A DNA stretch of 64,000 nt from Roseibium sp. (lineage in GTDB: Bacteria > Pseudomonadota > Alphaproteobacteria > Rhizobiales > Stappiaceae), in contig JBDWQP010000013.1 of NCBI GenBank assembly GCA_039986495.1, positions 88,084-152,083 of the forward strand, written 5' to 3'. Within the stretch, counting starts at the first letter, position 1. Each line of letters starts with the position of its first letter. Of this stretch, positions 3,081-22,060 are shown piece by piece. Position numbers and translations under genes: made by a program. Below the pieces are notes generated by a model that searched no databases, was not told the origin of the DNA, and saw only the letters and a program-made list of their open reading frames with translations.

Positions 3081-4487
3081 ATGGCAAGCATTGAAGGATT
3101 AATCAGGAAGGTCACGGTTCCCGCCTCACTCAAACCGTTCCTGAAGCCGCTTTACAACGGATACAGACGGCTATCGCGTTTTGTCTACAGGGTCATGCCT
3201 AAAGGTCTTTATACGCGGACCTTTCTGATCATTGTCGTACCGATGGTCATTCTCCAGTCCGTACTGGCGTATGTTTTCATGGAACGTCATTACGAGCTGG
3301 TCTCACGGCGTATGTCAGAGGCAATTGTCCGGCAGATATCCGCAGTGGTGTTTGTCATTGAGAATTACCCGCAAGACCCGGAACATAAAAAAATCGAGGA
3401 ACTGGGCAGCAAGGCGCTCGGCATGTCGATGTCGCTCACACCATTGGAACCTCTACCAGCACCAACGTCCAAGCCTTATTTCGACGTGATTGATCAAGAA
3501 CTTAGCAAAGCCATAAGCCAAAATATCGGCCGACCATTCTGGATCGATACTGTTGGTCGGTCCCGGTTTGTGGAAATCAGGATACAGTTGGACAACGCCA
3601 TCCTGCGTATCTTTGCCCGCCGCAATCAGACTTACGCATCCAACTCTCATATTTTTCTTGTCTGGATGGTTTCGACATCATTTGTGCTGATATCGATCGC
3701 ATTGCTGTTTCTTCGGAATCAGATCAGACCAATTGTCCGCCTTGCCGATGCAGCGGAAGCCTTCGGCAAAGGCCGACCAGCTGAGAACTTCAAGGCTTCA
3801 GGAGCCCAGGAAGTTCGCCGTGCTGGCATCGCTTTTGTTGACATGCGCCGCCGGATCGAACGCCAGCTAGAACAAAGAACCACGATGCTGGCGGGTGTCA
3901 GCCATGATCTCCGAACCATCTTGACCCGCCTCAGACTCCAGCTGGCATTTCTCGGTGAGAGTTCTGAAAGCGAAGCGATGCGCAAGGATGTCGACGAGAT
4001 GAGCCACATGCTCGAAGACTATCTTGCTTTTGCTAGGGGTGATGGTGACGAGGACGCCGAAATTGCCGATGTCGGGCTGATCCTGGAAGAACTGGAAGAA
4101 GAGGCCGAAATCTCCGGTCACAATGTCACTGTTGCATTTGACGGTTCTTCGGAAGTTGAACTCCGACGCCTATCCATGAAACGGTGCCTGTCAAATCTTG
4201 TCACCAACGCCTGTAAATATGGCGATAGGGTTGAAGTCTCCGGCATAATCGACAACGGCTGGCTCATCATCATGATTGATGACGACGGCCCCGGAATTCC
4301 CGCGGAAGAACGTGAAACGGCTGTTCGGGCCTTCCACAGGTTGGACCTGGCTCGAAATCAGGATGAAAGCGGTAGCGGGCTTGGCCTTGCCATCGCACGC
4401 GATATAGCCAGATCGCATGGAGGCGATCTTTATCTGGAAGACAGCCCGCTTGGCGGCCTCAGAGCCAAATTGCGCATACCAGCCTAG
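3081..4487 (+). CDS. EnvZ-like sensor histidine kinase
   Basis: Two TM segments, HAMP, H-box AGVSHDLRT, N-box NLVTNA, DDDGPG and GSGLGLAI. Confidence 0.95.
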   Translation: MASIEGLIRKVTVPASLKPFLKPLYNGYRRLSRFVYRVMPKGLYTRTFLIIVVPMVILQSVLAYVFMERHYELVSRRMSEAIVRQISAVVFVIENYPQDPEHKKIEELGSKALGMSMSLTPLEPLPAPTSKPYFDVIDQELSKAISQNIGRPFWIDTVGRSRFVEIRIQLDNAILRIFARRNQTYASNSHIFLVWMVSTSFVLISIALLFLRNQIRPIVRLADAAEAFGKGRPAENFKASGAQEVRRAGIAFVDMRRRIERQLEQRTTMLAGVSHDLRTILTRLRLQLAFLGESSESEAMRKDVDEMSHMLEDYLAFARGDGDEDAEIADVGLILEELEEEAEISGHNVTVAFDGSSEVELRRLSMKRCLSNLVTNACKYGDRVEVSGIIDNGWLIIMIDDDGPGIPAEERETAVRAFHRLDLARNQDESGSGLGLAIARDIARSHGGDLYLEDSPLGGLRAKLRIPA

Positions 4488-4510
4488 CAAATTTCAGTTG
4501 GAAGAAGCCA

Positions 4511-4852
4511 TTAATAGAGCCTGCCACCGATAGGCACATCCTTGCTGGGCGCCAACAGTACAACCTCGCCGTCCTCATCGGGGACGCCGAGCGTCAACAC
4601 TTCAGACATGACGGGTCCAATCTGTCGAGGTGGAAAATTGACCACAGCCATCACGAGCCGGTCGATCAAAGTGTCCGGTGTGTAGTGTTTCGTGATCTGC
4701 GCTGATGTCTTCTTGATCCCGATTTCTGGACCAAAATCAATCTGCATCTTGTAGGCTGGTTTGCGCGCTTCTGGAAAATCTTCGACCTTGATAATACGGC
4801 CAACACGGACATCCACCTTTAGAAAATCATCAAAACTAATCTGTTCGCTCAC
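4511..4852 (-). CDS. csaA: tRNA-binding/secretion chaperone CsaA
   Basis: DFLKVDVRVG, ARKPAYK, SAQIT, VVNFPPRQIG, SEVLTLG. A GTG start at 4852 with an AAGGAG RBS is preferred over 4882. Confidence 0.9.
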   Translation of the reverse strand: MSEQISFDDFLKVDVRVGRIIKVEDFPEARKPAYKMQIDFGPEIGIKKTSAQITKHYTPDTLIDRLVMAVVNFPPRQIGPVMSEVLTLGVPDEDGEVVLLAPSKDVPIGGRLY

Positions 4853-4917
4853 GAAAATCTCCTTGTTATCCAAAGCGGCCATGTAGCTTTAGAGCGTTCT
4901 TCGCAAGGCAGGTTTTC

Positions 4918-5610
4918 TCAAGCATTTGCATGCGCTTCGGCATCAGTTTGGCCGTTTTCGTCAAGGTCATCACGCTCATGTCGCTTTCGGCGGCCGGAAG
5001 CTGATCGGACAAATGACTTTAGGCCTTTGGCAAGGCCTTCAATCCTGGAAAGGCGTTTCATGAAGGAAGTCCCTTTGTCCAACTCCTTGTCCAATCTGGC
5101 CATTGTCCGAGGCATGCCTTCATCAATTTCCTCGAGCCAGGTATCCATCACACGAGAAAAAGCAACTGCCAAAGCTTGTGCAACGACCCTTGCCTTCACG
5201 CCCGACAAGTCTATCCCTGCCGCGATCAACATCCATTTTTGTGACCTGACTTCAATCCGGTTGAAGTCCAGCGCCAAACCGGGGTCATGTTTTGCAGCTT
5301 CATGGAGCGTACGAACAGCATCCTTGTATTCAGCCAGGGCATCTATGCGAGACATCAGGATATCAAACAGGCGGTCGCGCGCGGGTTGGTCTCCCATTTC
5401 CGCATCACGTTCATCCAGCACAGACTTGTCTACCTGTTCGGCAAAGGATTTCACCAGTTCGAGTTTTGAGCCATAGGCATCGCGTAGGTCTGAAAGTTTC
5501 ACGTCCGCTGCATCGGCGAGTATCGGCAACGATACATCCTGGTAGGAATGCTCGCCCAGAAGCTTCAGGAACGTTTTGAGGATCTTTTGTTTGGTTTTTG
5601 CGGTTGCCAT
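4918..5610 (-). CDS. TetR/AcrR-like protein
   Basis: N-terminal HTH-like region (LADAADVKLSDLRDAYGSK) and a helical C-domain with RDRLFDILMSR. Confidence 0.75.
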   Translation of the reverse strand: MATAKTKQKILKTFLKLLGEHSYQDVSLPILADAADVKLSDLRDAYGSKLELVKSFAEQVDKSVLDERDAEMGDQPARDRLFDILMSRIDALAEYKDAVRTLHEAAKHDPGLALDFNRIEVRSQKWMLIAAGIDLSGVKARVVAQALAVAFSRVMDTWLEEIDEGMPRTMARLDKELDKGTSFMKRLSRIEGLAKGLKSFVRSASGRRKRHERDDLDENGQTDAEAHANA

Positions 5611-5705
5611 TGAACAAGTCTCCGATGCGGCGTTCTTATCGAAAGATAGGAGACCAAAGCTGCGGCGAAAAGAGTGACTGTCCGCCGCATCTCTATTTAT
5701 TTTGA

Positions 5706-6524
5706 TTATTCGGCCAGTTCCTTCGCCCGTCTGACCGCTGCAGCAACAGCTTCGGTCATTACGGGCTGCAATCCGTCCACATGCATCAAAACATCCAAAG
5801 CAGCGGCAGTCGTGCCGTTGGGGCTGGTAACATTCTTGCGAAGGATAGAGGGATGATCACCAGATTGATGCATCAGTTCGCCAGCCCCAGAGACAGTTGC
5901 CACAGCCAGCTCATGAGCGAGCTCCTCCGGCAACCCTGCCACCTTGCCTGCTTCACTCAACGCTTCTGCGAGAAAGAAGACATAGGCTGGGCCAGATCCG
6001 CTGACACCTGTCACCAGATCGATCTGGCTTTCTTCATCCAGCCAGACCACCTTGCCAACAGCTGACAACAATCGGGCGATGGTCTGTTTTTGCGGCTCGG
6101 AGACAAGATCAGTTGGGTAGACAGCAGTAATTCCCCGCTTCACCATGGCAGGTGTGTTCGGCATGCATCGTGCAACTGGAATATCGCTAAAGACCGACAG
6201 AAACTTCGAGACCGGTGTTCCTGCTGCAACAGACAAGATCAGCGTATCCGGCTGAACGGCTGATATAAGGCCCGGCAACACTGCATCCATCATTTGCGGT
6301 TTGACCGCAATGAGAACGATACTTGCGATCAAATCGTCTGGCACGGACGTCACATGACGAATGCCATGTTGTTTGAGCAGGGATTCCATGTCCTGCGACA
6401 ATTTAGGGTCACAGACAACAATTGAGGATGGATCGATGCCATCGGCCATCCATCCTGCCAGCATTGCGCCTCCCATCTTGCCGGCGCCGACAAGCAGGAA
6501 GGGACGTTCTTTGGAAAAAGTCAT
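5706..6524 (-). CDS. proC: Pyrroline-5-carboxylate reductase
   Basis: GAGKMG, IAVKPQ, RCMPNTP, SGSGPAYVF, VTSPNGTT. Confidence 0.97.
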   Translation of the reverse strand: MTFSKERPFLLVGAGKMGGAMLAGWMADGIDPSSIVVCDPKLSQDMESLLKQHGIRHVTSVPDDLIASIVLIAVKPQMMDAVLPGLISAVQPDTLILSVAAGTPVSKFLSVFSDIPVARCMPNTPAMVKRGITAVYPTDLVSEPQKQTIARLLSAVGKVVWLDEESQIDLVTGVSGSGPAYVFFLAEALSEAGKVAGLPEELAHELAVATVSGAGELMHQSGDHPSILRKNVTSPNGTTAAALDVLMHVDGLQPVMTEAVAAAVRRAKELAE

Positions 6525-12489: not shown

Positions 12490-15066
12490 TCAGGCCGCAG
12501 CAACTTTATCCAGGAACCCGTCAACGACGGATTTAAGGTGCAGTGTCTGCTCGGCAACTTCATCGGAAGCAGATTTAACCTGGCTTGCCGATTGAACGGC
12601 TTCCGATACAGCATTTTGCACACCCGATATGTTCTGCGTAACACCTTTGGTGCCGACAGCGGCTGCCCGGACGTTTTCAGAAATCATGGATGTTGATGCA
12701 TCTTGCTCTTCAACCGCGGCAGCTATGGCTGCTGTTGTTGCATCTGCTTCTTCCATCGTGTCCCGGATTTCCTGGATCGCTTGAACGGACTCGTTCGTTG
12801 CTTCCTGAATGGCCTCAATCTGGGCACCGATTTCTTCAGTCGCCTTGGACGTCTGCGTCGCCAATTCTTTCACTTCTGATGCGACCACAGCGAACCCACG
12901 ACCGGCATCACCGGCACGCGCAGCTTCAATTGTGGCATTCAGGGCCAGTAAATTGGTCTGTTCGGCAATAGCCTGAATCAAGGTAACCACTTCACCGATC
13001 TTGGTTGCACCTTCAGCAAGCCCCTGAACCTTCTCGGTCGTGGTTCTTGCTTTGCCAGTTGCATCGGTCACGATTTGCGTTGCTCGTGTTACCTGCTCAC
13101 CAATTTCAGTGATGGACGATGCCAGCTCTTCCGCTGCGGTGGCAACGGAATCAACATTGTCGGACGCAGTGGTTGAATTCTCGGATGCATCCGAAGCCAG
13201 TCCGGCAGATTCATTCGACACCTGGTTCAAGGCATCTGCTGTCGTCTGCATCTGATCCATATTTGCACTGACATTGCCAAGAACAGCTTCTATTTCACCT
13301 CTGAAATCGACAATCAGCTGCTCGACTTCCTTCTGGCGGACGGCTTGAGCTTCCTGCTCTTCCTGGGATCTTTCCTGCAGGTCATGGCGTTCAATGGCAT
13401 TTTCCTTGAATACCATCAGAGCCGATGACAACTCGCCGATTTCATCTTGTCGCTTCAGGACTTTGATATCGACGTTCAAGTCTCCATCAGCAAGCTGGCG
13501 GGTCGCATTTACAAGATTTGCCAATGGGCTGGCGAGACCGCGATCAACCACAAGAACGCTTATGAGGCCGGTGATCAACAGACTCGCGACACCAACGATG
13601 ATCAGAGCCGTTGCACCTCTTGAGAACAACTCCTTTACAGCAACTGAATCTGTTCTGACTGTCTGTAACTCCAGTTCAATAAGTTCAGTTACAGCACCGC
13701 CAATACGTTCAACGGCTTGCGACATTTCCTGCACCTGGGCTTCGGCAGCTGCAGCCCGCTTCAGCTGATGAACATGATCAACAAGGAGACCGGTTTCCGG
13801 ATCGCCAAAACTGAGAAGTTTGGCGAGTTTCTCTTTCACCTCAGTCAATTCAAGACTACCCAAACCGTCAGCCATATGTTTGGCATCTGCGGTAATCTTT
13901 TCCTGAATTGGGATAATCAATTCCGGATTGGTTGTCAGGCCACCTTGAACGAGGGTCGCCACAAATTTGTTGGCAAATGCCTGGGCTTCGATTGTCTTTT
14001 TCAACTCACCAACCTGATTGTTTAACAGGTCGGAAATCAGCGCTGAATTCTCATCGACGGCAGTTTCGGTGTCGATGGTCAGGGTAAAGAGGCGGTCATC
14101 AATCTGAGTTATGAGAGCATCATCTATTGCTTTTTGCAATTTGATTGCTGTGTCAAGCACTTGGCGTTGACGACTGGCAGATATGAAGCTCTCCGAAGTA
14201 CGAGCACTTGAGATTTTGACAGACAGGTCAACCAGACTATCGAATGCTTCGTTAGTCCCGATCTCAAGACCCTCTTCACTCATTAATGAACGCAATTCGG
14301 CTATCTTGGCATTGGTCGCAGTCACTTTATCCTCAAACAGGGTCGCAAGTGCTGCATCGTCGACATAAGCCACCGTTTCGGTGAGCCCGGCAAGAAGATT
14401 TGTTTCTGCACGCAACTCAAGGAACATCCTGAGTTTACCCATTTCCTTGTCAGCGAGATTGCTGACGAGGGCTCTGCCTTGTTCCATCGCATCTTCACCG
14501 CCAAGAACGACGGTGAAGTAGGCGTCATCGACAACCGGCGTTATGATCTTGTTGATGCCGTCAAATGTCGTGAAAAGATCCTGTAGACGAAGATTTTTCG
14601 CGTCTCGGGCAGAGATCAACGTCCGTGTTGTTTCGTCCAGTGCGCCGAGGCTCTCACCAAACGACCCACTTTCATTCTCCAGAACATGAACGATATCTGC
14701 GTTCGTTTCAGTCCGGACAATATTCGTTTCGCTATCGAGCAGAGATTGTACCGAATTCTGAAGAGCTGCGAACGCTGCTGCTTGCTGTTCGCCAGTGATG
14801 CTATTTGCAACTGCACCAGCAGCGGCCGCGATATCAGCGCTGGTCACAGCCAGTCTTGCTGCGCTTCCGATGGAAGGCAGGCTGTATTGCGCAAGTTGGT
14901 CAAATCCCTGTTCAACTGATCGGAAAGAGTACAATCCAATTCCGACTGCGACTGCGGTGAGGGCAACGATCGATCCAACTGCGGCAAACAATTTTCCGCG
15001 AATTCTCAGCTTCACCAATGGCTTGCCTGAACCTATCGACATGGCTTTTTTGATATTTAGCTTCAC
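12490..15066 (-). CDS. Methyl-accepting chemotaxis protein with a very large all-helical periplasmic domain
   Basis: TM1 about aa 26-47, about 435 aa periplasmic region, TM2 about aa 485-507, HAMP, and the signalling tip [34 protein letters not shown]. Confidence 0.95.
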
Positions 15067-15111
15067 AATACCCTACCCAATTCTGCGATTGCCCAGACTT
15101 TGGAAAAATTC

Positions 15112-15149
15112 TTGCGCGCCGGTACTTTCCACCCGGAACCGGCGCGCAA
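15112..15149 (-). other. 12-bp stem-loop between the binding-protein gene and the MCP gene (mRNA stabiliser or partial terminator)
   Basis: TTGCGCGCCGGT-N14-ACCGGCGCGCAA. Confidence 0.6.
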
Positions 15150-15157
15150 ATCAGCAA

Positions 15158-16327
15158 TTAGCTGCCGGTCTTGTTGATCGGAGCAAAGCTTCCGTCTTTT
15201 TGAATGGCTGTCATGAAGACGTCATCCATCCCCTGGCTATCGCCAGGACCAAATGTCAAAGTGACACCGCCAAGATCAAAGGCGCCTGTTGACCAGAATG
15301 CATTCAGGAAGTTTTCACGTGTCACATCCTTGCCGGCGTTTTCAAGACCCATGACGGCAAGCTTGCCAACAACATAACCTTCAAGTGTCACAAATCCTGG
15401 CTCTGCAGCCGGATCAATTGCCTTGAGAGCCGCCTGATAAGCCTTCACCATCGGAATGCTGTCATCCCACGGGAATGGCACAACCTGAGAAACAATAACA
15501 CCTTCACCGGCATCACCAAGCTCTGCAGACAGCGCCTTGGAACCGACAAAGGAAATATTGACGAACTTGGCATCCATTTTGACTTTACGCGCGAGTTTGA
15601 TGAATTCGGCAATCGGTTTGTAGGCGCCAACCATCACGACTGCTTGCGGTTTTGCCTTACGGATCTCAAGCAGAGCTGATTTCACCGCTGTTGTATTTCG
15701 CTGATAGGTGCCTTCAGCAACCAGGCTCATGCCACGCTTTTCAAGAGCTGCATTTACACCGGCCAGACCGACACGGCCAAAACCGTCATCCTGGTAAAGG
15801 ATCGCAATTTTATCTAGCTTCAGATCGTCATGAAGGTGCTGGATCCAGGCTTCTGTTTCCGCACCATAGGTGGCTCGAACATTCACAATGTTGCCATGCG
15901 CAGGGTCACGCAGGAAACCGGCCCCAGTGAACGGCCCGACAAAAGGAACTTTTGCGGCAGTTGCGATCGGCTGGGTTGCCTTGGAAGTTGGCGTGCCAAC
16001 GGGACCAATAAGGCTGAATACCTTGTCTTCCTTGATCAGCTTGTTTACCTGCGCAATAGAGCGGTCAGGCTCATAACCATCGTCGTAACTGATGAGTTCG
16101 ATTTGACGGCCATGAACACCACCATTGCTGTTGGCTTCCGCAAAAGCAGCTTCCAGGCCGAGTTTCATACCCGTGCCAAGGGCAGCAGCAGGACCTTCTA
16201 GCGCAGCAGCTTGCCCAAACAGGATCTTGTCGTCAGAAACACCGTCTTCGGCCATTGCAGGCCCAACCAATACCATCGCAGTTGCAGCCATGGCTGCTGC
16301 TACGGACTTCCGGTCAAACAATTTCAT
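15158..16327 (-). CDS. Orphan periplasmic binding protein (LivK/type I fold)
   Basis: Signal peptide, ILFGQAAALEGPAA, GGVHGRQIELISYDDGYEP, GPVGTPT. No permease or ATPase gene is adjacent. Start set at MKLF (16327). Confidence 0.9.
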   Translation of the reverse strand: MKLFDRKSVAAAMAATAMVLVGPAMAEDGVSDDKILFGQAAALEGPAAALGTGMKLGLEAAFAEANSNGGVHGRQIELISYDDGYEPDRSIAQVNKLIKEDKVFSLIGPVGTPTSKATQPIATAAKVPFVGPFTGAGFLRDPAHGNIVNVRATYGAETEAWIQHLHDDLKLDKIAILYQDDGFGRVGLAGVNAALEKRGMSLVAEGTYQRNTTAVKSALLEIRKAKPQAVVMVGAYKPIAEFIKLARKVKMDAKFVNISFVGSKALSAELGDAGEGVIVSQVVPFPWDDSIPMVKAYQAALKAIDPAAEPGFVTLEGYVVGKLAVMGLENAGKDVTRENFLNAFWSTGAFDLGGVTLTFGPGDSQGMDDVFMTAIQKDGSFAPINKTGS

Positions 16328-16819
16328 TCTAATTCCCCCTAGGAATGGAAGTGTCAGCGACACAACTACCTCCTACGGTTTCACGAACCTCTTAATAAGA
16401 TCTTTTGAAAAACAAAGTAAAAAGCAAAAAACAGAAACTATTCATACACAAATGAAAATATTACTGATCGCTTCATAGTTACTATCACCAATGAACCTAT
16501 TTTTATTCGGTAAATGAATTAATTACCCATACGTAATCAAACTACTGATTTATTGTCGATTTTGACGAAACAGAATTGCGAACTCAGATTAGATGCAAAG
16601 AAAACGTAGTATTCCAGCTATATTTCATCAGTTCAATTCTGTTGGTTCAAACTAGCTAACAAACTAAAACTGGAAGATAATTTTCGGTTGACCCGTTGTT
16701 CAAGACCAACTGATCCCGACTAAGCATTGTTTTTGCTTTCAAAATTTGCTTTCGAGGTATTCAAAATACCAGAGAAGTGCGCGGGTCCGGGTGAACGGGA
16801 TATCAATTCACAAAATGCA

Positions 16820-18945: not shown

Positions 18946-21108
18946 TTAGGCCGCTTCGACCTCTTTGAGGAAACGATCAACAGTGTTCCGCAGCTGAACG
19001 GTTTTCTCACTAACATCATTGGACGCATTCAGGACTTCACTCGCTGACCCGCTTGTGGTTTTTGACTTGTCACTGATTGTGACCATAGCTCCGGCAACCG
19101 TCCGCGTACCTTGTGCGGCCTCTTGAACATTCGAAGAGATTTCGTTGGTCGCCAGACCCTGCTCCTGAACCGCTGTTGCGATGGTTTCGGTATAGCTATC
19201 AACCTGCCCCATCGTCTCAGCAATAGACCCGATAGCAGACACTGCGTCTGTCGTGGCGGCCTGCACTTCCGCGACCTGAGAGGCAATCTGTTCGGTTGCT
19301 TTCGCGGTTTGGGTCGCCAAATCCTTCACTTCAGAAGCCACCACAGCGAACCCTCGACCAGCCTCACCGGCACGAGCTGCTTCGATCGTCGCGTTCAGCG
19401 CAAGCAAATTGGTTTGTTCTGCTATATCGGAAATCAGATTGACGACGTCGCCAATGTTCTGAGCAAGTTTGGCCAATCCGCCAATCCGGTCATTGGTTTC
19501 CTGAGCAGAGGAAACTGCTTCACGAACGATTTCGGTTGTACTGTCGACCTGACGGCTAATTTCCTGGATAGATGCGGACAACTCTTCTGAAGCCGATGCA
19601 ACGGTTTGCACATTCGCAGACGCCTGTTCAGACGCTGAGGATGCATTGGTCGCTTCGCCTGCTGTTTCATCCGCGATCCCGTTCAGGCCGCGAGCGGCAT
19701 CTTGCATCTTGCCATTGTTTTCAACAACGACATCAAGCATTTCCTCTACATCGGTCCGGAAGCCTTCAATAAGTGCTTTAACAGTTTCTGCCTGTTGTTC
19801 ACGCGCGTTCTGACTTTCGCCCTGCTCTTGCTGCAACTGTTCTCGTTCCAGAGCATTCTCACGGAACACTTTCACCGTGTTTGCCATGTCAGCGATCTCG
19901 TCGTTTGTTGCCTGACGAGGCACATCAATATCCGTATCGCCATCAGCCAAGGCTTCCATCGCTTGTGACAAGCCCTTGATCCGTCCGACAAGACGACCAG
20001 AAATGATAACCCCGAAAACGCCGGCACCAACGGAGCTCAGCACCGCGATAAGCAGGATCCAGTTCCGCAGGGCCGTTAGTGGGGCAAGGACTTCTGCAAC
20101 GTCCTGAACAACAACAAGGGAATAGGAATGTCCAAGGTACTCAAATGGCACCAAGGCTGCGTAGACTTCGCGACCCTGGAAATCACTCAGAGTATTAAAG
20201 ACAGGCGCACCGCCCATAGCAGCCAAAACAGTATCGTTCTTGAGAAGATCACTCATGACTTCTGAGGCATCTGCTGTACGGTTGCTATCGTTCTGGATGA
20301 TCCCGTCGCCATTGACCAAAAATACGTTTCCAGTTTCACCAAGCCCGGCATATTTGCCGAGCATCTTGCTGATCTTCGCAACAGGCGTTTCATAAATGGC
20401 AACACCGATGATCTTTGACCCCACGGAAATCGGGGCTGAAAGAAATCCTGTCGGTATATCGCCTGCCGCCACATACGGTGCCGCATCGACAATGTGAATT
20501 TCGTCCGGTGCCCCTTGAAGCGCGGTCTGGAATGCAGTGAAAACGCTTGTTTCATTCCAGGGCGCCGAATTCAGGTTCTGAGCAAAGTCACCTTTTTTGT
20601 GAACCGAGTAGATGACATCGCCAGCCGGATTGGCGAGCAACAATTCTGGAAAACTGTTGGCGGCGGCAAATTCTCTCAAGGACGTATGATGTTTCGAATG
20701 TGCTTTATCGTAGGGCTTGCGCCCAGCCTTCACCAATTCAGAACGCTGATCATCCGGATGCGGATTGTTATCAATATAAACCTTCGTCAATAGCGCCTGA
20801 GCCTTGTCTCCGTATTTGGCCCAGTTCTTGTCAAAATCGGAATAAGCAGCCCGAAGGTTTTTACCGGAGGCATGCCCGGATATGAGAGAACGTTTCGTCG
20901 CGAAATAGTCGAGCAATGCATCTTTACGGCTCTCAGCAAGACCCATCAGGCGCTCTTCAGCCAACCCCCGGATACTTTGCGCACCAGAGAGGTAACTGGC
21001 AGCCCCAACGCCCGCAGAGCAGATGAGCGCAATTCCCACCATTATCGCTGGCAACTTTCTCGATACTTTCACAGACGTCCCCTCCAAACTTGGGAAAGGT
21101 AAGGCCAT
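18946..21108 (-). CDS. Methyl-accepting chemotaxis protein, dCache-type sensor
   Basis: Two TM segments, periplasmic YIDNNPHP...[51 protein letters not shown]. Confidence 0.95.
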
Positions 21109-21129
21109 TTGGCCTTACCTTGTTAGATC

Positions 21130-21699
21130 TTAGAGTTTTTCGACGTTTACACCGAAGGTCACAGCGCCGATGGGCTCACCTGAATCCGGATCAACAACAG
21201 GAACGCTCACCTGGCTCTGAAGCAATTGGGTACTGTCGTCCTGCTCAAGCTCACTGACATGTACAGAGCCTTTGCCAGCACCAAATGTTTCTTTCCACTT
21301 AGCCTCGTCACCCTGCCAATAATCCGAGGTGACATCGCTTTGGCCGACATTCAAGCCTTTCGCGTCCATGACAAAAACTTCAGTGTAGAGACCGTCACTG
21401 CTCTCCTGAATACCCGCCAAATAGCCAGAAAGGCTATTGTCGAGGATGCTATCGATCATTGGCTGATCGACAGCTTCCGTTTCAGCGCGCCATGTCTTGT
21501 CGAGCTCGTCTATTTTTGCCTGATCGTGGCCAGCTGTTTCGCCGTTTTGAGCTTTGACAGCTGCAATGACTTCAGATGAAGACGCAATCTCAGCAATATT
21601 GGAATTTGCCAGCGCTTCAAGTTCGGACTGAAATTCATTGGAAAAAGCAGCACTGGTCGTCATGACCAAAAATAACGCAGAATGCGTAAGGGCTTTCAT
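21130..21699 (-). CDS. Stand-alone secreted Cache/PDC-like domain protein
   Basis: Signal peptide; EVFVMDAKGLNVGQSDVTSDYWQGDEAKW; QSQVSVPVVDPDSGEPIGAVTFGVNV; 21 nt upstream of the MCP gene. Confidence 0.8.
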   Translation of the reverse strand: MKALTHSALFLVMTTSAAFSNEFQSELEALANSNIAEIASSSEVIAAVKAQNGETAGHDQAKIDELDKTWRAETEAVDQPMIDSILDNSLSGYLAGIQESSDGLYTEVFVMDAKGLNVGQSDVTSDYWQGDEAKWKETFGAGKGSVHVSELEQDDSTQLLQSQVSVPVVDPDSGEPIGAVTFGVNVEKL

Positions 21700-21917
21700 C
21701 AGAGTAATCTCCACTTGGTTCCGATCCCTCACCAAACGTCATACAAATTAATTTCAAGTTTATTTTAAGTAATAAATTAAGTTGCGTTATTTTTTACTAC
21801 ACTAATTAATGTATTTTTGTATATGAAATAAATTATCGCGTTTTATCAAGTGTAACATTGCCTGTATTGATACAATTACTTATGACTGTCGTTTCTAAAA
21901 AGGAATTTGCCCGCGAC

Positions 21918-21946
21918 TTGCTCACCCGCAGACTTTCGGGTATACC
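21918..21946 (+). promoter_or_regulatory. Sigma70-type promoter of rplY
   Basis: TTGCTC-N17-TATACC. Confidence 0.55.
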
Positions 21947-22060
21947 GCGCTCGCGTCTCACCCCTGGAGGAGGCGTATCTGGGCCGATTCCGAACAATTC
22001 AAGTCTGATCCAAGACGTGATCGTTCGCCGGCCCAATTCTATACCCAAAGGAGTTTCCCC

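Follow-up and report, generated by a model that had tools for sequence, protein, structure and literature searches.

A predicted secreted Cache-fold protein encoded beside a chemoreceptor with a remodelled sensor: a candidate two-part chemosensor in Roseibium and other bacteria

Organization of the locus

We analysed a 64,000-nucleotide (nt) stretch of DNA from Roseibium sp. (GenBank assembly GCA_039986495.1, contig JBDWQP010000013.1, positions 88,084 to 152,083; hereafter the window), in which the gene of a small, predicted secreted protein with a Cache/PDC-like fold lies directly in front of the gene of a methyl-accepting chemotaxis protein (MCP). Both genes are on the minus strand, as are all features of the two proteins given below. 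The small gene occupies 21130..21699 and encodes a stand-alone protein of 189 amino acids (aa), recognized from its open reading frame (ORF) and translation, from an AlphaFold2 (AF2) model and by Foldseek. The MCP gene (18946..21072) encodes 708 aa from a GTG codon at 21072, and its ORF is open from an ATG at 21108 (720 aa). Residues of the small protein are numbered over its 189 aa and those of the MCP in the 720-aa numbering.

The MCP probably begins at GTG 21072 and not at the upstream ATG of the longest ORF. All its orthologues, as well as the database copy P0151, begin with MKVS(R/Q)KLP, and the GTG has a GGAGGGG sequence 6 nt upstream. We therefore place the start at the GTG, which leaves a gap of 57 nt between the two genes. 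An earlier note on this DNA had described a secreted protein ending 21 nt before the MCP. A predicted secreted protein encoded upstream of the MCP is confirmed, but the distance is 21 nt only if translation starts at ATG 21108. The sequence strings quoted in that note are all present, each in the protein to which it was assigned: TSDYWQGDEAKW in the small protein, and SFPELLLA and a divergent 10-residue block in the MCP. The two genes, 57 nt apart on one strand, are putatively co-transcribed.

The predicted secreted protein

The small protein starts with a predicted signal peptide (residues 1–20, 21640..21699), read from the sequence as MKALTHSALFLVMTTSAAFS with cleavage before NEF. The N-terminus is hydrophobic and runs into a cleavage-type site, A-x-S/A before NEF, which is A-x-A before NEF in the family consensus, and the AF2 confidence (pLDDT) is below 50 across residues 1–18. 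The protein is putatively exported to the periplasm. The mature chain of about 169 aa has a pI of 4.05 and contains no cysteine. It stops after the PDC core; a second hydrophobic segment is absent, and the protein is not fused to a transmembrane signalling module. A near-identical database protein (99% identity) is also 189 aa long.

In the AF2 model (pLDDT 84.6), five N-terminal helices (residues 24–100) precede a five-stranded PDC core with strands at residues 105–112, 117–120, 152–154, 159–169 and 176–185. Foldseek matches the model with probability 1.0 to the sensor domains of KinD, DctB, Mlp24 and Tlp3, the TM-scores being only 0.35–0.46 because the helical part differs; WalK–YycH models are also among the matches. 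The Pfam profile dCache_1 matches below threshold (E 3.5e-4, 20.6 bits against a cut-off of 45) over profile positions 11–154, its distal half. No match was found in NCBIfam, and a sequence search of the PDB gave nothing meaningful. Domain-library scans with the profiles of substrate-binding protein (SBP) families gave no match either, the fold being that of a PDC. When the profile of the small-protein family was compared by hhalign with the sensors of its Stappiaceae partner receptors (the paired sensors, described below), it aligned to the distal module of these sensors with a probability of 74%.

Forty-one positions are invariant in common among 21 homologues with identities down to 56%. 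They cluster in the strand 1–2 turn, the loop that follows strand 2, strand 3 and one face of strand 4. The motif TSDYWQGDEAKW (residues 124–135, 21295..21330) lies in the loop behind strand 2 and extends into the helix that follows, and its residues T124, D126, W128, Q129, G130, D131, E132 and W135 are invariant across these diverse homologues. In the second conserved block, DDSTQLLQSQVS in strands 3–4 (21205..21240), the invariant residues are D154, S156, T157, Q161, Q163 and S165, and their i, i+2, i+4 spacing puts all of them on one side of the sheet. As judged from the model, the invariants fall at the position of the canonical Cache ligand site. The loop of this site and one side of the sheet have hardly changed between Roseibium and Vibrio. 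This site is rich in Asp, Glu, Gln, Ser and Thr and holds two Trp and one Tyr, from which a polar or cationic ligand might be imagined; this is speculation.

The chemoreceptor

Profile searches identify dCache_1, HAMP and MCPsignal domains in the MCP. Its periplasmic sensor (residues 43–349, 20062..20982) is assigned as a dCache domain from the Pfam match at residues 45–334, the AF2 model and Foldseek. The dCache_1 score of 37.3 bits is below the Pfam cut-off of 45, yet the match spans profile positions 2–240 of 240, and PF02743 is present in the precomputed Pfam annotation of most MCP orthologues. The AF2 model of the sensor (pLDDT 91) has two tandem PDC modules carried by a single long N-terminal helix and flanked by two transmembrane helices, with the order of secondary-structure elements of a dCache, and Foldseek matches it to PctA, Mlp24 and Tlp3, with TM-scores of 0.73–0.75 normalised to the ligand-binding domain of PctA. 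The HAMP domain (residues 369–418, 19855..20004) and the MCP signalling domain (residues 530–688, 19045..19521) follow as domain profile matches. The signalling domain is about 50–55% identical to many paralogues of the same genome and equally to foreign partner MCPs. A possible swap of the sensor onto the cytoplasmic part of common partner MCPs was considered, but the comparison is uninformative since these identities are alike.

The sensor carries the family motif YIDNNP (residues 111–116, 20761..20778), which is kept in relatives with and without a small gene. Two further segments have diverged. SFPELLLA (residues 152–159, 20632..20655) stands in place of the canonical GYYDIFLF, and a 10-residue block (residues 166–175, 20584..20613) in place of (L)IYTVFKE(L)DY. 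In the AF2 model the first segment lies just before and in strand 1, and the second in strand 2 and the following loop, both in the membrane-distal module. It is this loop after strand 2 of the distal module that we take to hold the ligand-contacting motif of dCache_1 receptors such as PctA, Mlp37 and Tlp3. The assignment of the pocket rests on the secondary-structure register of the AF2 model and not on residue mapping onto a solved ligand complex, and the profile of canonical sensors aligns to McpH and Tlp1 in the PDB only over the part from strand 3 to the proximal module. The amino-acid sensors of the dCache_1AA type, as reportedly described by Gumerov et al. in 2022, have a Y...R.WY motif after strand 2 together with Y and D on strands 3 and 5. 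R-x-W-Y was not found in the loop after strand 2 of the window MCP; the canonical relatives read VFKE.DYATN there and are likewise without it.

The canonical motif quoted in the earlier note is real: a paralogue encoded on another contig (C7) of the same genome reads GYYDIFLFDLEGDLIYSVFKEEDY, and the same motif is present in 41 sampled members without a small gene. These canonical YIxxNP receptors of Alphaproteobacteria share with the window MCP the fold, the domain order dCache–HAMP–MCPsignal, a similar length, and residues Y111, N115, P116, Y133, H137, H141, R145, Y167 and K171. They differ from it in having only 26–34% identity and no small gene upstream. No characterised ligand of the canonical YIxxNP dCache family came to our notice either. 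The genome (G000) holds three further MCP paralogues of the YIxxNP dCache superfamily with graded loss of the motif, none with a small gene upstream: the canonical one at C7:247101-249278, one reading GYGDLYLL...VTKGDEF at C8:13990-16167, and one reading GLFSDVALA...SYRKGEEF at C3:184902-187061.

Co-occurrence of the two genes in Stappiaceae

Both proteins were searched in 121 Stappiaceae genomes and their coordinates were compared, which gave 150 sensor matches. In a paired subclade of 54 sensors, 36–100% identical to that of the window, each receptor gene is immediately preceded by the small gene in the same orientation (54/54), and the upstream small proteins are orthologues with 56–100% identity. 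The remaining 96 sensors are canonical paralogues, 26–34% identical to that of the window, and none of them has the small gene directly upstream (0/96). The divergence of the sensor thus tracks the upstream gene; this correlation had been put forward as a test in the earlier note, and the outcome is in favour of that note. Altogether 49 genomes carry the pair, and in five of them the whole unit has been duplicated, with the copies in tandem in G090. Sequence identity of one partner rises with that of the other (r = 0.85), and the small protein is more conserved than the receptor sensor in 53 of 53 pairs (mean identity 71% versus 51%). Open frames of 779–780 aa at the small-gene matches in G033, G063 and G072 were considered as fusions and rejected; they are antisense frames over rplY/pth in high-GC DNA.

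In a maximum-likelihood tree the paired sensors of Stappiaceae form one clade with support 100/100, on an unusually long stem of 0.99 substitutions per site, and a group of canonical sensors without the small gene is its sister. The dependence is one-way: a sensor of the paired clade is never found without the small gene, while the small gene is found without the receptor at loci L084 and L088-L092. Two more distant loci carry related arrangements, both on long branches. At L194, from another class, the small gene lies 68 nt upstream of a dCache MCP reading HWTD...VQKKGD. At L198, a gene for a fusion of Peripla_BP_5 with the PDC unit overlaps by 4 nt the gene of a dCache–HAMP histidine kinase reading ENHD...LARE, whose sensor is related to that of the window. 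Both sensors are without the canonical residues, and L198 provides a precedent among relatives that favours a two-part sensor.

Many Stappiaceae genomes, but not that of the window, hold a second paralogous small protein with 40–50% identity (L093-L100). Its partner MCP has about 561 aa, with a periplasmic CHASE3 domain in the one that was scanned (L094:2340-4025).

Remodelling of the receptor sensor

The substitutions in the window MCP were checked by alignment with the canonical set of 41 unpaired sensors, which are about 45–58% identical overall. They affect the near-invariant canonical residues Y153, Y154, F157, F159, F170 and E172 and many more, in agreement with the divergence reported in the earlier note. 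The canonical positions conserved at 85–100% include W143, F144, Y153, Y154, F157, F159, F170, E172, T177, D188 and R194, and further F206, F209, P214, S215, F222, Q240 and M241. All these listed residues are replaced in the window MCP, and most of the positions are variable within the paired clade; positions 153, 154, 170 and 172 are each only 33–43% conserved there. In the core of the distal module, 41 columns are at least 90% conserved among canonical sensors. The paired clade keeps 13 of them and loses 28, and has 15 such columns in all. In the proximal module the number of columns conserved to at least 90% is 12 in canonical sensors versus 21 in the paired clade. Constraint has shifted out of the distal module, while the proximal module has become more constrained. 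Since formerly invariant distal positions are variable in the paired clade, the pattern is as expected if the ancestral distal pocket had lost its function rather than been retuned to a new ligand.

The receptor retains Y111, N115, Y133, H137, H141, R145, Y167, K171, D174, N178, W184 and D208. Because of these surviving polar family residues we call the pocket remodelled, and not proven dead. The earlier suggestion is thus partly supported: the partnership and a remodelled pocket are borne out by the strict co-occurrence and the constraint shift, whereas the small protein is only a candidate for ligand recognition in trans.

The paired clade has gained invariants of its own, K98, R122, R130, K131, P132, V165, G230, K232, Y253 and R277, most of which are basic. 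Comparison of conservation between the clades places R130, K131 and P132 in the segment GRKPYD (20707..20724); they are 90–100% conserved in the paired clade versus 0–15% in unpaired sensors. The mean net charge is −8 in paired sensors versus −19 in unpaired ones (p = 1e-7), to which K98, R122, R130, K131, K232 and R277 contribute. The lower acidity would suit a receptor on which a very acidic partner docks, although it does not count as independent evidence.

The small-protein family and its partners

The family reaches far beyond Stappiaceae. At 90% identity 4229 clusters match the small protein, and the family profile matches 3868 representatives at 50% identity. Species-representative genomes contain more than 598 family loci, and among 401 evenly sampled Pseudomonadota genomes the family is present in 32 (about 8%). 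We inspected the best 80 of the more than 598 loci, each from a different species. An MCP gene is directly downstream on the same strand in 69 of these 80 and upstream on the same strand in 6; in one locus the MCP is close by but on the other strand, two loci are without an MCP, and two are too short for a decision. Thus an MCP adjoins the small gene in 76 of 78 informative loci, on the same strand in 75, and the median gap is 53 nt. In the sample of 401 genomes about 17 of 23 free copies adjoin an MCP or a HAMP protein. Both Alpha- and Gammaproteobacteria show the linkage, with MCPs of different types.

A homologue in Vibrio cholerae, VC_A0032 (Q9KND3), is 49% identical to the small protein and annotated as 'uncharacterized protein', with the MCP VC_A0031 (521 aa) following it; the pair lies at 6004-8227 of L060 (V. 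cholerae ATCC 14035). The VC_A0032 protein has been detected by proteomics (PMC11452002), an AphA ChIP-seq peak lies within the VCA0032/VCA0033 intergenic region (PMC6855506), and expression is reduced in an hns mutant for a set of MCPs that includes VCA0031 (PMC4332508). In literature searches on VCA0030-32, and on chemoreceptors accompanied by stand-alone or orphan Cache proteins, a functional study of the family was not found.

Most partner receptors have a periplasmic domain of about 120 aa without a Pfam match. Others have CHASE3, one has a large helical sensor, and dCache is found in Stappiaceae and at L194. The small protein is the conserved element, and the dCache partner is a speciality of Stappiaceae and not the general rule. 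Comparison of the 120-aa domain by hhalign with the small protein or with dCache gave probabilities of only 12–15%. By eye, a G-x-x-(I/L/V)-R pattern can be seen on the first periplasmic helices of different partner receptors, but its conservation is insufficient for a claim.

The PDC unit also occurs in fused form. Complete units with the motif (T/S)SD(Y/F)(W/Y)Q(G/A)DE are found at the C-terminus of two PilJ domains, of SBP_bac_3 or of Peripla_BP_5, for example at L198:2571-4358 (with the kinase at 4355-6346), L192:5129-6910, L191:4167-5477 and L193:4268-5623; the fusion proteins further include P0234, P0238, P0249, P0255 and P0341. The motif of the small protein is kept in fused relatives as SSDYWQGDEAKF and TSDFYQADEQWW. 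No signalling gene was found next to the PilJ–PDC fusion P0234 at its locus. In more distant relatives the unit is an N-terminal sensor fused in histidine kinases (L195-L197).

Intergenic region and neighbourhood

Between the two genes lies a perfect 11-bp stem-loop, AAGGTAAGGCC-AAAT-GGCCTTACCTT (21096..21121, minus strand), with a minimum free energy of −25.9 kcal/mol (z −2.88), without a T-tract and with ATG 21108 in its loop. Hairpins of different sequence are found at the same spot in the orthologous loci L001-L005, L013 and L019; those of L001-L005 keep an AAGGC...GCCTT core and differ in the outer pairs. Over 61 loci the enrichment of hairpins is modest (mean z −1.3 versus −0.3, p = 0.027). 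A scan for terminators and promoters found no consensus terminator or promoter between the genes and did not call the stem-loop a terminator. The same scan gave only two terminator-like matches, both within the signal-peptide codons and fewer than in shuffled sequence. By analogy with binding-protein operons, the hairpin may stabilise the upstream message and so provide an excess of the soluble partner. Alternatively, it may attenuate read-through.

On the other side of the small gene, towards the divergent rplY, an AT-rich intergenic region (21736..22060, 325 nt, no strand assigned) is the presumed promoter region of the pair. Its GC content is 40% overall and 23% at 21760–21900, compared with about 52% across the window; a sigma-70 consensus scan of 21736–22060 gave no match. 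Another binding-protein/receptor pair is found 4 kb away in the window (12490-16363, minus strand). It consists of a Peripla_BP_6 protein without a transporter, followed by an 858-aa MCP whose sensor matches the NCBIfam TorS model over residues 22–610.

Discussion

The data show both folds, the linkage of the genes and their co-occurrence throughout the clade; they also show that constraint has shifted and that the small protein is the better conserved partner. With a confidence somewhat above even, we propose that the two genes encode a two-part periplasmic chemosensor, in which the secreted Cache protein would bind a small molecule and dock on the receptor. The free Cache protein would first bind its small molecule in the periplasm and then dock on the periplasmic domain of the receptor, and docking would alter the signalling of the receptor to CheA. 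In Stappiaceae, the distal module of the receptor dCache would have turned into a platform instead of a pocket. Secretion, ligand binding by the small protein, its physical contact with the receptor and co-transcription are inferred.

Sensing through a soluble partner is well known. In the response of Vibrio harveyi to autoinducer-2, the soluble LuxP recognises the ligand on the tandem PAS/PDC protein LuxQ, which does not bind it itself, and the two genes are adjacent. The pair described here is similar in having a soluble partner and a membrane sensor with a dCache-like periplasmic region encoded by adjacent genes. However, LuxP has the periplasmic-binding-protein fold while the partner here is a single Cache/PDC domain, LuxQ is a hybrid histidine kinase while the receptor in the window is an MCP, and the contact and the ligand are proven there while they are proposed for the present pair. 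In Escherichia coli, Tar–MBP, Trg–RBP/GGBP, Tap–DppA and Tsr–LsrB sense through a secreted binding protein that docks on the receptor, as does TorT–TorS. The likeness is indirect sensing through a docking partner, as we propose for the window pair; adjacent genes are a further point in common with the TorT/TorS type and with the neighbouring pair at 12490-16363. The E. coli binding-protein receptors have four-helix-bundle sensors, whereas the receptor here has a dCache. To our knowledge, all partners in binding-protein chemoreception have the SBP/periplasmic-binding-protein fold, and as a rule an ABC transporter uses them as well. In the window no transporter is present, and the partner has a Cache fold and thus lacks the SBP fold that defines these systems.

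Over 90% of all Cache domains form part of proteins that also contain signalling modules to which they are fused (PMC12889525), which makes a large free family linked to MCPs unusual. Stand-alone haem Cache proteins (sCache_heme, DUF3365/Tll0287) are free secreted Cache domains, termed atypical, with a CXXCH c-type haem and proposed redox roles (PMC12889525). The small protein resembles them only as a free Cache domain, since it has no cysteine and no DUF3365 match and is genetically tied to MCPs. In Agrobacterium tumefaciens, the small periplasmic pterin-binding protein PruR, encoded beside DcpA, is described as controlling DcpA through its periplasmic domain (PMC11194511). The likeness lies in a small periplasmic ligand-binding protein encoded beside a membrane signalling protein; PruR has another fold, and the output there is c-di-GMP turnover and not chemotaxis.

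Several observations weigh against a two-part sensor. Because a single clade on a single long stem contains all the paired sensors of Stappiaceae, the correlation there reflects essentially one ancestral event followed by strict retention. In Cucumibacter (L027) a canonical sensor, GYYDVFLF...AKEADF, is encoded 308 nt after the small gene. In genus g6 of Stappiaceae (L088-L092) the small gene is followed on the same strand by genes for an NMT1-type substrate-binding protein, an ATPase and a permease, and not by an MCP, and at L084 (G107) no partner follows at all; at these loci the small gene keeps its position beside rplY-pth. The partner receptors have at least four unrelated periplasmic architectures, which is awkward for one conserved docking surface. 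Their 120-aa domain is also found without the small gene, with only 6 of 17 matches adjacent to it in the 401 genomes, by which exclusivity of this domain to paired genes was ruled out. The retained residues H137, H141, R145, K171, D174, N178, W184 and D208 may allow the receptor to bind a ligand of its own. The fusions suggest that the PDC unit may be an adaptor or coupling module rather than a ligand binder. And the intergenic hairpin could be a terminator.

In a rival reading, the small protein would be an accessory modulator or adaptor, which docks on the receptor to stabilise it, inhibit it or set its sensitivity, or which couples the receptor to other periplasmic components, while the dCache would still recognise a ligand of its own with a changed specificity. 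YycH and YycI dock on WalK as accessory modulators, and WalK–YycH models are among the Foldseek matches of the small protein. Many family-conserved polar residues are kept in and around the distal module of the receptor, and the PDC unit stands behind bona fide ligand-binding domains (two PilJ, SBP_bac_3, Peripla_BP_5), which would be the binders in those proteins. We nevertheless regard this explanation as improbable, though the strongest of the alternatives. In the small protein, near-invariance is found at the canonical Cache ligand site and not on an obvious flat surface. A new specificity of the receptor should fix a new pocket, yet positions 153, 154, 170 and 172 are poorly conserved (33–43%) in the paired clade, and just 15 columns of the distal module reach 90% conservation, compared with 41 in canonical sensors.

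The two proteins might also be coupled in function without touching each other: the small protein would bind, buffer or deliver a compound, and the co-regulated MCP would sense the same or a related compound independently. The transporter genes of the NMT1 type that replace the MCP after the orthologue in several Stappiaceae genera (L088-L092) would agree with this, as would the PilJ–PDC fusion P0234, which has no signalling neighbour. We consider it quite unlikely, because the same-strand neighbour is specifically an MCP in 75 of 78 loci, which points to chemotaxis and not to uptake; every sensor of the paired clade comes with the small gene (54/54), duplication affects the pair as a whole, and the loss of constraint in the distal module is unexpected for an independent sensor. 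As to accidental synteny combined with ordinary drift of a paralogue, without any functional relationship, the single ancestral event behind the Stappiaceae association and the persistence of the small gene beside rplY-pth, whatever comes after it, could be read in this way. But the adjacency recurs in Alpha- and Gammaproteobacteria with different MCP types and with short gaps (median 53 nt), and the pair has been kept in 49 genomes and duplicated as a unit, so that an accident is very improbable.

The proposal of a two-part chemosensor may be extended to a more general one, which we hold to be doubtful rather than likely: widespread 'trans-Cache' receptors, in which a secreted ligand-binding Cache module plugs into several receptor architectures, with the (T/S)SDYWQGDE PDC unit as a general periplasmic coupling module. 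Such a receptor would amount to a split dCache: the separate protein would provide the distal module in trans, and the one within the receptor would serve only as a docking platform. The PDC unit would also tether binding domains of the PilJ, SBP_bac_3 and Peripla_BP_5 types to membrane sensors.

The gene pair, which recurs in hundreds of bacterial species including V. cholerae, probably encodes a two-part chemical sensor not described before. We know of indirect chemoreception only with SBP-fold binding proteins; the new element here would be that a free partner of Cache fold takes the place of the classical binding protein. If true, bacteria would have a further, new design of sensor, in which a free Cache protein serves chemoreceptors. 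A group of MCPs whose sensor domains are small or degenerate would then be accounted for, together with the failure to find their ligands by screening the receptor alone. Since the family includes VC_A0032/VC_A0031 of V. cholerae, the hypothesis is directly testable in established laboratory systems.

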